This document shows, in pieces, positions 39,132-41,597 of a DNA stretch of 64,000 nt. The notes under the pieces were generated by a model that worked only from the letters and a program-made list of their open reading frames with translations, had not been told where the DNA came from and did not search any database. Both the position numbers and the translations under genes were made by a program. The stretch lies in assembly GCA_021163765.1 (NCBI GenBank), contig JAGGTK010000053.1:8017-72016 (forward strand), read 5' to 3'. The stretch's first letter is position 1. Each line of letters begins with the position of its first letter. The DNA is from a bacterium. Lineage in GTDB: Bacteria > 4484-113.

Positions 39132-41597
39132 ATGGGAGGAGAATTAATGGACAGTGACCCGAAAGGTGACGGACTGCGAGTAGGCGTCTTCGTATGTGAT
39201 TGCGGCCTTAACATCGCGGGGACGGTCGACACCCAGGCAGTGACAGATTACGCGGCAACTCTTCCAGACGTCGTGTGCGCCATCCGGAACCGCTACACCT
39301 GTGCTGATCCGGGGCAGAACGAAATCAAGAAAGCCATTGCCGAGCACCGCCTGAACCGAGTAGTTATCGCTTCCTGCACCCCGTTACAGCACGAGCCCAC
39401 ATTCCGGACCTGCGTCGCTGAGGCAGGCCTTAATCGTTACCTCATGGAAATGGCCAACCTGAGGGAACAATGCTCCTGGGTACATCCCAGCGACATGGAG
39501 GGCGCTACCAGAAAGGCGAAAGACCTGGTAGCAGGCGCAGTGGCACGGGCACGAAATCTGCAGCCGCATGACGACCTGTCGGTTCCTGTCACCAAGCGCG
39601 CGCTTGTCATCGGGGGAGGTATAGCCGGCATGGAAGCTGCGCTCGAGCTGGCCGACTCGGGGCATCAAGTGGTACTGGTTGAAAAGGAGGCATCCATCGG
39701 TGGGATTATGGCTCAACTGGACAAAACATACCCCACCATGGATTGCTCCATATGAATTCTCGGCCCTAAGGCCATAGATGTCGGTCGACATCCAAACATA
39801 GAACTCCTAACCTACAGCGAGGTAGTGAATGTATCGGGCTACATCGGTAACTTTACGGCGGAAATCCGCCGGAAGGCGCGCTATGTGGACCCGGAGGCAT
39901 GCACCGCATGTGCGGAGTGCGCCCAGGTGTGCCCGGTGGTGAAACCCGACGAGTATCAGATGGGGCTATCCTCCCGGAAAGCCATCTACATTCCCTACCC
40001 CCAGGCGGTGCCATCCTCCTACATCCTTAATATGGAAGATTGCCTGGGAACCAATCCCATCGCCTGTGGAAAGTGTGCCGAAGTATGCGAGCCGGACTGT
40101 ATCAATTATGATGACCGCGACATAATCGTCAAGCGTGATGTGGGTGCGGTAATCGTGGCAATCGGCGCTGACGTGTATGACCCCACCGAGATGGATGAAT
40201 ACGGCTACACGCGCTTCGACAATGTGATCACTTCCATGGAATTCGAGCGCCTAATATGCGCTGGTGGGCCGACGCTGGGCCACTTTGTGCGACCGAGTGA
40301 CCATGAGCGTCCGAAGCGCATCGGCTTCATACAATGTGTTGGATCCCGAAATCCTAGCATTGGGAGGCCCTACTGCTCCAATATCTGCTGCATGAACACC
40401 ATCAAGGACACTCTCCTGTTGGCTGACCATTACCCGGACGTAGAGTGCACCGTGTTTTACCAGGACATTAGAGCTTTCGGGAAGTCGTTTGAGGACATGT
40501 TCCAGCGCTCTAAGGAGGCTGGCACCCGTTATATCAGAGGAATACCGGGTGATATTGAAGAGGATACTGAAACCGGCAACCTCACCCTCATAGCAGAAAA
40601 CACCACTAGCGGCAAGATAGAGCGTCATGAGTTTGACATGGTTATCCTATCCGTTGGGGTCGGACCGCCCAAGGATCTTGCTAAAATCTCCAGTCTGCTA
40701 ACACTCTCCAAGACCTCGGATGGCTTCTTCATGGAGTCCCATCCGAAACTGAAGCCTGTTGATGCCCCCACGCGCGGAGTTTTCTTCTCTGGCTTTTGCG
40801 AATCCCCCAAAGACATCAAGGATTCTGTATGTCAGGCCGGTGCAGCTGCTTCACGCGCTGGCGCGCTGCTTAACGCGGGCCAGGTCCATATTGAGGCGAT
40901 TACCAGCGTGATTGACGCGGATGCCTGCAAGAAGTGCGGTGTATGTGCGAGCGTTTGCCCCTATGGCGCAATCACATGGAAGAAGGGCGAAGTGGCCGTT
41001 GTCATCGACGCCGCGTGCGCGGGCTGCGGAAACTGCGGCGCCGCCTGCAAATTCGACGCGATTACGATGCGCCACTTCACAGACGCGCAGTATATGGCTC
41101 AGATTCGCGCCATCCTGGCCGAAGACCCGCAGGACAAAGTCTTCGTGTTTGCGTGTAACTGGTGCTCATACAGCGGCGCGGATATGGCTGGCATTTCACG
41201 AATGCAATATCCGGCCTCCAATCGAATCGTAAGGACTATGTGCTCAGCGCGTGTCTCCGAGGATATGGTGCTTGAAGCGTTCCGTTGCGGCGCACCGGTG
41301 GTTCTCGTTTCCGGCTGCCATTACGCTGACTGCCACTATATCACTGCAAACAGGCAAACCGTTCAGCGCGTCCAGCGCCTGTGGAACAAGCTGGAGAAAG
41401 CCGGTGTCAGGCCGGAACGGCTGCAGCTCGAGTGGATTAGCGCCGCCGAGGGCCAGAAGTTCGCCAAGGTGATGGCCCAGATGGAGGAATTGCGAAAAAC
41501 GGTGACGGAGGAGGAAATCGAGTACACGATTGAGGCTCTAAAGCCAAAACCCAGGAAGCCTAAGAAGGAGAAGGAAGCTGCCGCAGTGGCCGGGTAG
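39132..41597 (+). CDS. HdrA-MvhD fusion flavoprotein, probable selenoprotein (in-frame UGA 39753-39755)
   Basis: single frame through 39132..39755 and 39825..41597; N-domain VFVCDCGLNIAG; [14 protein letters not shown]; [15 protein letters not shown]; inserted and C-terminal ferredoxin motifs; C-terminal MvhD domain (VFVFACNWCSYSGAD, VSGCHYADCHY). Confidence 0.78.
39777..39792 (+). promoter_or_regulatory. bacterial SECIS-like hairpin GATGTC-GGTC-GACATC starting 21 nt after the UGA codon
   Basis: perfect 6-bp stem with GGUC loop; same spacing and loop as the element at 34507. Confidence 0.65.

Follow-up and report, generated by a model that had tools for sequence, protein, structure and literature searches.

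An in-frame UGA followed by a SECIS-type hairpin in an hdrA-mvhD fusion gene of an uncultured bacterium

Is a UGA which interrupts an hdrA-mvhD gene of an uncultured bacterium a stop, or a selenocysteine (Sec) codon? The gene resides in a stretch of 64,000 nucleotides (nt), hereafter called the window (assembly GCA_021163765.1, contig JAGGTK010000053.1, positions 8,017 to 72,016 of the forward strand). Two open reading frames (ORFs), 39132..39755 and 39825..41597, lie in one frame and are joined by the TGA at 39753-39755, which is followed by a perfect hairpin resembling a bacterial Sec insertion sequence (SECIS). A previous inspection of the letters, the sequence-only reading, had proposed a Sec codon and a bacterial SECIS in a gene encoding a HdrA-MvhD fusion, and the sequence-level tests reported here bear the proposal out, folding energy being a borderline case for the bare hairpin. 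We give a probability of about 0.93 to the reading that the UGA is the Sec codon of a single hdrA-mvhD gene and is served by the downstream hairpin; from these tests we infer the incorporation of selenium itself. The elements in question are the following.

39147..41597, forward strand: hdrA-mvhD fusion gene of the HdrA2 type, 816 codons including one UGA (codon 203), as predicted by read-through translation, Pfam and PDB alignment
39753..39755, forward strand: in-frame UGA, putatively read as Sec (aligned Cys in homologues; TGA in the contigs L001, L002, L243 and L244)
39756..39776, forward strand: 21-nt spacer between UGA and hairpin, codons I-L-G-P-K-A-I
39777..39792, forward strand: bacterial SECIS-type hairpin with a GAUGUC/GACAUC 6-bp stem and a GGUC loop (folding, inverted repeat, covariation)

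The read-through translation is open until 41597 apart from the TGA. The likely start is the ATG at 39147, preceded by a GGAGG (39135-39139) 7 nt upstream; an alternative ATG at 39132 falls within this Shine-Dalgarno sequence. Residues are numbered here on an 821-aa query translated from ATG 39132, in which the stop has been replaced by Cys. In one HMMER alignment the HdrA chain 5odc_A matches residues 16-661 (E = 4e-234) and crosses the TGA unbroken, as expected from the claim that the two ORFs encode a contiguous HdrA. The MvhD chain 5odc_D matches residues 667-783 (E = 2e-37). Since 5odc_A and then 5odc_D align along one translation, the predicted product is a HdrA-MvhD fusion of the HdrA2 type, the identity already assigned to it at first inspection. 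Pfam supports the assignment by detecting a Rossmann flavin adenine dinucleotide (FAD)/Pyr_redox domain, Fer4 4Fe-4S ferredoxin domains, and FlpD (MvhD) at residues 670-786. The HdrA moiety includes the N-terminal Cys-cluster domain, the thioredoxin-reductase-like FAD domain, and the inserted and C-terminal ferredoxin domains, and near full-length alignments were obtained with 5odc_A, 8rvu_a and 7bkb_A.

Public gene calls cut hdrA-mvhD into an ORF of 202 or 207 aa and one of 579-593 aa; the 202-aa version of the N-terminal ORF is called in L001, L002 and L244. The 13 closest homologues (87-100% identity) are all called as shortened ORFs, which begin after the TGA site at inconsistent points. 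The gene could be truly split, a 202-aa polypeptide ending at 39755 and a second one being re-initiated at GTG 39825 or downstream. A GAGG is found just upstream of this GTG, and HdrA is known in split as well as in fused forms (PMC9012536). The GAGG, however, is only 2 nt away from the GTG, and the starts called in relatives differ (579, 588, 590, 591 and 593 aa), none being conserved. The cut would moreover fall inside the FAD-binding domain, and the 23 codons between TGA and GTG encode conserved HdrA sequence (ILAPKMVDVAKHPNVKLYAYSEV in 5odc_A). Compared to L001, the 69 nt in between are 94% identical, and the 4 changes are all synonymous and all outside the hairpin. A split gene is thus a very improbable explanation, and a single gene read through the UGA is the reading retained.

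At the position of this codon, all the 107 full-length homologues present in the best 120 have a Cys. In 5odc_A as deposited the corresponding residue is position 198, the Cys of DCSIC-IL, which we take to be the Cys197 of HdrA in the literature. Cys197 reaches across the dimer to ligate the N-terminal [4Fe-4S] cluster of the other protomer (PMC9012536). The TGA and an identical hairpin are kept in four independent assemblies (ENA ERZ27256773; JGI 3300033143, 3300033153 and 3300016457). Of these, JGI 3300016457 matches the window exactly in this region, and ENA ERZ27256773 comes from a relative with 89% aa identity. The 200 codons on either side of the TGA share 75-76% nucleotide identity with L001, and feature an excess of synonymous changes (83:38 and 86:29). 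The codon is not peculiar to this lineage. One genome per species, for a total of 185,579 species, was scanned for the pattern CCN-ACN-NNN-GAY-TGY-NNN-NNN-TGA-ATH-YTN-NNN-CC, and a HdrA TGA at this codon was found in at least 118 species. All the usable matches listed translate as HdrA. They come from loci labelled Desulfobacterota, Chloroflexota, Planctomycetota, Bacillota, Acidobacteriota, KSB1 and other groups, and from Asgard archaea. A Cys/Sec pair, homology on both sides of the UGA and UGA orthologues elsewhere, which together mark the HdrA selenoprotein family, are all found at this locus.

These data bear on the simplest explanation, that the TGA is a genuine stop, originated by a nonsense mutation in a decaying Cys-type hdrA or by a sequencing or assembly error. 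Gene callers do read the TGA as a stop in every assembly, and the neighbouring hdrA gene, a paralogue called module 1 and described below, carries a TAG which looks truly disruptive. Yet, the TGA occurs in four independent assemblies, at up to 25% nucleotide divergence and with changes dominated by synonymous ones on both sides, and it recurs in at least 118 other species and in the paralogue itself. A pseudogene would keep neither 613 downstream codons open nor a frozen hairpin. A genuine stop is hardly conceivable here, and the Sec reading of the UGA is followed further.

What would make the ribosome read the codon is plausibly the hairpin. The perfect hairpin signalled 21 nt downstream of the TGA, in the range 39753..39792, is exact in the sequence: the 5' arm GATGTC spans 39777-39782, the GGTC loop 39783-39786, and the 3' arm GACATC 39787-39792, so that the loop begins 27 nt after the UGA. 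In ViennaRNA predictions the hairpin is part of the minimum free energy (MFE) structure as well as of the centroid, at this site (site 2) as at the equivalent site of module 1 (site 1). On its own, it folds at -6.1 kcal/mol at site 2 and at -8.2 kcal/mol at site 1; for the UGA and the following 45 nt the values are -14.0 and -13.4 kcal/mol, respectively. Within the 64 kb the 16-nt motif GATGYCGGTCGRCATC is found only at the two HdrA sites, and 0.18 chance matches are expected at two mismatches or fewer.

The consensus for bacterial SECIS elements (PMC13188914) has five constraints: the upper stem is 4-16 bp long, the apical loop counts 3-9 nt, its first two positions include one G or more (as a rule G[G/U]), 16-37 nt separate it from the UGA, and the MFE is -7.5 kcal/mol or lower. 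The site-2 hairpin shares with the bSECISearch model (Zhang and Gladyshev, as reported in PMC13188914) the location in the coding region just after the UGA, and agrees with it on four of the five constraints, having a 4-nt loop with GG and then U, a 6-bp stem, and 27 nt from UGA to loop. It differs from the model in that no lower stem evidently reaches back to the UGA. An extended lower stem of the fdhF kind, reaching the UGA, is not supported; the multibranch pairing seen in the MFE structure is absent from the centroid. The apical loop of the Escherichia coli fdhF SECIS is GGUC too. In fdhF, as here, a stem-loop located 3' of the UGA exposes a G and a U in a small apical loop, which in fdhF is recognised by SelB (PMC8659212).

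The spacer also holds a self-complementary GGCC-CUAA-GGCC sequence (39762..39773), a small second hairpin of uncertain relevance. It recurs in relatives which encode the G-P-K-A peptide (L001, L002, L016, L107 and L121), and may be a simple result of the codons GGC-CCN-AAG-GCC.

Whether the hairpin is an RNA element, or a mere consequence of the encoded peptide, was assessed by comparing Sec- and Cys-type genes. The control was the same pattern carrying TGY, searched on metagenome contigs, which gave 116 Cys-HdrA sites. All the 118 TGA sites listed align without gaps, and the spacer length is invariant. Among the matches listed, to which the following counts refer, a perfect 6-bp stem in the register of the window is found at 59 of 106 bacterial TGA sites, at none of 12 archaeal TGA sites and at none of the 116 Cys sites (Fisher p = 8e-25, bacterial TGA versus Cys); the attribution to bacteria or archaea follows record titles, and at least two loci (L008 and L066) look mis-binned. 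The GGTC loop is similarly distributed (58/106, 0/12 and 1/116). GAUGYC-GGUC-GRCAUC is conserved across phyla, in loci labelled Desulfobacterota, Chloroflexota, Planctomycetota, Acidobacteriota, KSB1 and others.

The constraint is visible at synonymous positions. In the 52 species encoding D[AV]GRH, the third positions of codons are frozen within the hairpin (GAT 51/52, GYC 52/52, GGT 52/52, CAT 52/52), and those in the flanks are near saturation (1.5-1.9 bits). The variable hairpin position, in the Arg codon CGA/CGG, covaries with the choice between Val GTC and Ala GCC: the combinations are C-G in 29 cases, U-A in 16, U-G in 7, C-A in none (p = 2e-8). In a second class, GAGGCC-GGUC-GGUCUC, which encodes the peptide EAGRS, D is changed to E and H to S, and pairing is kept via double changes. 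Over an alignment of 108 sequences 83% of the cells are paired, 38 double-sided changes are counted versus 12 +/- 6 in shuffles, and pairing measures peak in the true register compared to slides of 1-3 columns. Shared ancestry inflates these shuffle statistics, and the synonymous-site and same-peptide controls are more robust. The four closest Cys orthologues have the D-V/A-G-R-H peptide written in other codons, and 2, 5, 3 and 3 of the 6 pairs are left.

It may be argued that the stem is a by-product of the D-V-G-R-H peptide or of shared ancestry, with no function in RNA, and that read-through, if any, is due to another signal. The stem does lie within a conserved protein segment, and many of the 59 hairpin sequences could derive from a common or horizontally transferred ancestor, an effect which the shuffle control keeps. 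On the other hand, the stem is lost in Cys orthologues, where different codons spell the identical peptide. The freezing of synonymous sites is confined to the hairpin, their neighbours being saturated in the same sequences, and the C-A combination is never seen (0/29). The EAGRS class swaps two amino acids and preserves pairing, and Asgard archaeal Sec-HdrA genes do without the hairpin (0/12 archaeal sites). A by-product is accordingly a very improbable account, though the least improbable among the alternatives weighed in this work. As Cys orthologues with the same peptide have a decayed stem, the hairpin, judged on these alignments, goes with the TGA and is not imposed by the protein.

After its TGT, one Cys-type HdrA2 gene (L246:1095-1154, GCA_964456395.1) carries GATGTC-GGTC-GCCATC, in which the GGTC loop is kept and 5 of the 6 pairs are left. 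The element is apparently a fossil SECIS, pointing to a recent Sec-to-Cys conversion. Remnant bacterial SECIS-like structures have been reported in Cys sequences derived from Sec-containing homologues (PMC1794560).

Several observations weigh against the reading of the UGA as a Sec codon served by this hairpin. The energy of the bare site-2 hairpin, -6.1 kcal/mol, is short of the -7.5 kcal/mol cut-off, which is reached only by counting flanking structure. The z-score in a 60-nt context is modest (-2.25, and -1.12 after a 10-nt shift). Rfam gave no match at the gathering threshold over the whole window, and only chance-level ones (E = 5-8) in 39700..39900 at E <= 10. The upper stem-loop of fdhF starts 11 nt after the UGA and requires a bulged U17 (PMC8659212), while the stem in the window is unbulged and follows a spacer of 21 nt, and assignment of the site-2 hairpin to an fdhF-type subtype was rejected on these two grounds. 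The Sec and Cys sets compared above are the first 120 rows of two different collections, and not random samples. Among the matches listed, 47 of the 106 bacterial TGA sites lack a perfect stem in this register. Finally, selA, selB and selD were missing from the 64-kb window in a Pfam search of the 57 larger ORFs, and tRNA-Sec was missing too, ARAGORN finding no tRNA at all there; either absence is uninformative for a genome of several Mb.

Given that the window lacks Sec machinery, one might suppose that the UGA specifies one of the standard amino acids (Trp or Gly, its meanings in genetic codes 4 and 25), or that near-cognate suppression is at work. TGA, however, is the ordinary stop of 16 other ORFs of the window, including por and hdrB/C genes, and hence UGA has not been reassigned in the code. 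A scan of the 64-kb window for same-frame ORF pairs joined by TGA revealed no credible selenoprotein candidate beyond the two HdrA sites, which host the sole plausible in-frame TGAs. The homologues invariably have a Cys at this place, and neither Trp nor Gly, and the codon is accompanied by a SECIS-type hairpin. Decoding as a standard amino acid is as remote a prospect as a genuine stop, and Sec is kept as the residue most plausibly inserted.

As 47 of the 106 bacterial sites do without the perfect stem, the hairpin is best described as a subfamily-specific element. A large subfamily from Desulfobacterota and Bacillota (NDCSM-U-ILSPKLVEVGRH; as an example, L003, L018 and L029-L031) carries, at this register, GAGGUC-GGCC-GGCAUC, whose loop is GGCC and whose stem conserves a G.A mismatch at its centre. 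HdrA subfamilies from Dehalococcoidales and Chloroflexia (ILTPKM[AV]SV...) have quite different sequences. HdrA, as far as these alignments tell, thus carries several SECIS variants. In Asgard archaeal Sec-HdrA genes SECIS elements have been placed outside this position (PMC13188914). Two loci do not fit their labels. L008, labelled Bathyarchaeota, has a Desulfobacterota-like Sec-HdrA site with a bacterial-type GAGGTC-GGCC-GGCATC element; in L066, labelled Bacteroidales, the site (FPTDDCAI-U-ILGPVML) resembles those of Asgard archaea. Either locus seems to be mis-binned or to have been transferred.

The paralogue mentioned above lies upstream of hdrA-mvhD, and its relevant elements are listed here.

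34307..37459, forward strand: module 1, fused double HdrA, paralogue of hdrA-mvhD, broken by a TAG at 35537 in the window (translation, Pfam)
34484..34486, forward strand: first in-frame UGA of module 1, putatively Sec, at the same motif position as in hdrA-mvhD (translation, assemblies)
34508..34523, forward strand: SECIS-type hairpin of module 1, GAUGCC-GGUC-GGCAUC, after a 21-nt spacer (folding)

The sequence-only reading had noted that the TGA sits at the identical motif position in module 1, with the same 21-nt spacing and the same GGTC loop, and the sequence confirms it. A comparison of the two predicted structures, suggested at the same time, agrees: both hairpins are found in MFE and centroid structures, and they have identical spacer length and loop and are one compensatory pair apart (U:A at site 2, C:G at site 1). 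A further pair, G34507:C34524, could lengthen the module 1 hairpin to 7 bp (-11.5 kcal/mol with the extra pair). It had also been argued that two independent occurrences speak strongly against coincidence. The geometry is indeed identical, but the sites are not independent: as the two genes are paralogues within a single family, the match between their sites carries less weight than claimed. The real weight of evidence is in the cross-species comparison, not in the paired sites.

The first HdrA unit of module 1 is devoid of the N-terminal cluster domain and has the putative Sec at the Cys197 position. The second unit has an N-terminal CxCGxNIAG domain and no Cys at the Cys197 position (LKYLYPNMRPATE). 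The HdrA fusions of ANME and Moorella follow a similar 'self-heterodimer' logic (PMC9012536), and the halves of module 1 are in reverse order. After the TGA, module 1 is called as a single 985-aa ORF in L001 and L244. From 34307 to 41597 the window and L244 differ by 21 substitutions, all of them within 54 nt (35525..35578), and are otherwise 100% identical. The patch turns a TAC (Tyr) into the TAG at 35537-35539, breaking the double HdrA; the peptide reads GINRVE*GLGPEGIAEAPAGES in the window and GIDKDEYGFVARRDAAVSAVES in L244, and L001 is near-identical to L244. The hypothesis that this codon is a third Sec codon was rejected, being a TAG and not a TGA, and a TAC (Tyr) in the otherwise identical L244. 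An origin of the patch from a diversity-generating retroelement was similarly rejected, as changes are not adenine-specific. Pyrrolysine was considered too, though no search for signs of it was made. The patch may have arisen by chimeric assembly, by strain variation or in the course of pseudogenisation.

How would the UGA be read? The standard bacterial mechanism of Sec insertion is the most likely one. SelB, carrying GTP and Sec-tRNA(Sec), would dock on the GGUC apical loop as the ribosome nears the UGA, and, competing with release factor 2, would bring Sec into the A site. The ribosome would then complete the FAD domain and go on to translate both ferredoxin domains and the MvhD domain. In the folded protein Sec would replace the Cys197 equivalent, completing the N-terminal [4Fe-4S] cluster of the partner protomer with selenium as a ligand. 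By analogy with the solved methanogen enzyme, the Sec-ligated cluster would lie on the route by which electrons leave the bifurcating FAD in the direction of ferredoxin. The module 1 paralogue, 5 kb upstream, would use the same device.

The two hdrA genes are embedded in a module which includes the genes listed below.

32173..34307, upstream of the hdr module: alpha and beta subunits of a 2-oxoacid:ferredoxin oxidoreductase (Pfam)
37456..37920, forward strand: stand-alone MvhD (Pfam FlpD; synteny in L001, L002 and L244)
37927..39087, forward strand: HdrC/B-like fused Fe-S/CCG protein (Pfam Fer4_8 and CCG; synteny in L001, L002 and L244)
about 41770..42294, forward strand: HdrC-like ferredoxin (Pfam, synteny)
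42291..43181, forward strand: HdrB-like CCG protein (Pfam, synteny)
43216..43776, forward strand: gamma subunit of the 2-oxoacid:ferredoxin oxidoreductase (Pfam, synteny)

The gene order of the module is the same in related contigs. These also carry an ORF of 55-58 aa encoding a Zn-ribbon between hdrA-mvhD and hdrC (L001:11765-11932; about 41622..41800 in the window). A 204-aa ORF starting with TTG (41680..42294) probably over-extends HdrC, which is 173 aa long in relatives. A second set of alpha, beta and gamma subunits of 2-oxoacid:ferredoxin oxidoreductase, and a HdrD-like Fer4/CCG protein, reside about 30 kb upstream of the hdr module (2362..4852 and 7357..8706). Bacterial markers in the window are SmpB, RNase PH, LpxC and a ribosome hibernation factor. 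GlnA is 87% identical to that of a metagenome-assembled genome (MAG) labelled Candidatus Riflebacteria. The LpxC homologue (62282..63109, E = 2e-65) suggests that the source organism is diderm and makes lipopolysaccharide; it is not easily reconciled with the fact that the nearest HdrA2 homologues of the Cys type are labelled Chloroflexota.

Knowledge of Sec decoding, or of HdrA, is not changed by this locus. Its correct annotation has a practical value, as all the assemblies of the lineage examined split both hdrA genes at the TGA. Splitting hides two candidate selenoproteins in a putative electron-bifurcating Hdr/2-oxoacid:ferredoxin oxidoreductase module, and the selenium dependence which they would necessarily entail for this uncultured bacterium. 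The comparative data provide a quantitative case of RNA structure constraining the choice of codons, and even of amino acids, in a coding region, and supply a simple sequence signature to find Sec-type HdrA genes. The invariance of the HdrA-specific hairpin across phyla, and the way it shapes the peptide, may be mildly new. Tentatively, and with less than even odds, we propose that GAUGYC-GGUC-GRCAUC at +21 nt is a near-invariant, HdrA-specific SECIS cassette shared by bacterial groups, which would dictate the D-[AV]-G-R-H/E-A-G-R-S peptides, leave fossils upon Sec-to-Cys reversion and be usable as a marker, Sec acting as a selenolate ligand of the [4Fe-4S] cluster across the dimer and not as a redox-active nucleophile. 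If this is true, the cassette could mark exactly the horizontal spread of HdrA and its Sec-to-Cys conversions.

Since 2006 at the latest, HdrA has figured in lists of selenoprotein families, in bacteria as in archaea (PMC1794560; see also PMC11097638). The occurrence of multiple Sec copies per genome, the clustering in operons with frhD/mvhD, and hdrA fusions have already been described (PMC1794560, PMC13188914, PMC11097638). The gene of the window is not annotated as a selenoprotein in any assembly examined; the locus is, on the comparisons made here, a new, unannotated Sec-HdrA of a long-known family, and will not surprise specialists. It belongs to the same family, and plausibly undergoes the same kind of recoding, as the Sec-HdrA of Methanococcus maripaludis (HdrAu) and other Methanococcales, and as the bacterial Sec-HdrA of Syntrophobacter fumaroxidans, Syntrophus aciditrophicus, Moorella thermoacetica and others. 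Compared to the known Sec-HdrA, the copy of the window is a HdrA-MvhD fusion of the HdrA2 type from an uncultured bacterium, and its operon includes 2-oxoacid:ferredoxin oxidoreductase genes and not hydrogenase genes.

Cys-type HdrA2 proteins from Chloroflexota/Dehalococcoidia MAGs are the closest full-length homologues (62-65% identity, among the best 120). They feature the same fusion, follow a HdrBC-like gene as in the window, and share with it the peptide TMDCSIC-VLGPKMMD[VA]GRHP. They differ in having TGC or TGT instead of TGA, and a decayed hairpin in which 2-5 of the 6 pairs are left. In the HdrABC-MvhAGD complex of Methanothermococcus thermolithotrophicus (5ODC), HdrA aligns with the protein of the window over 646 residues, and all four domain types are common to the two. 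The methanogen enzyme, however, has a Cys and a separate MvhD subunit, whereas the protein of the window would have a Sec, and carries MvhD fused at its C terminus.

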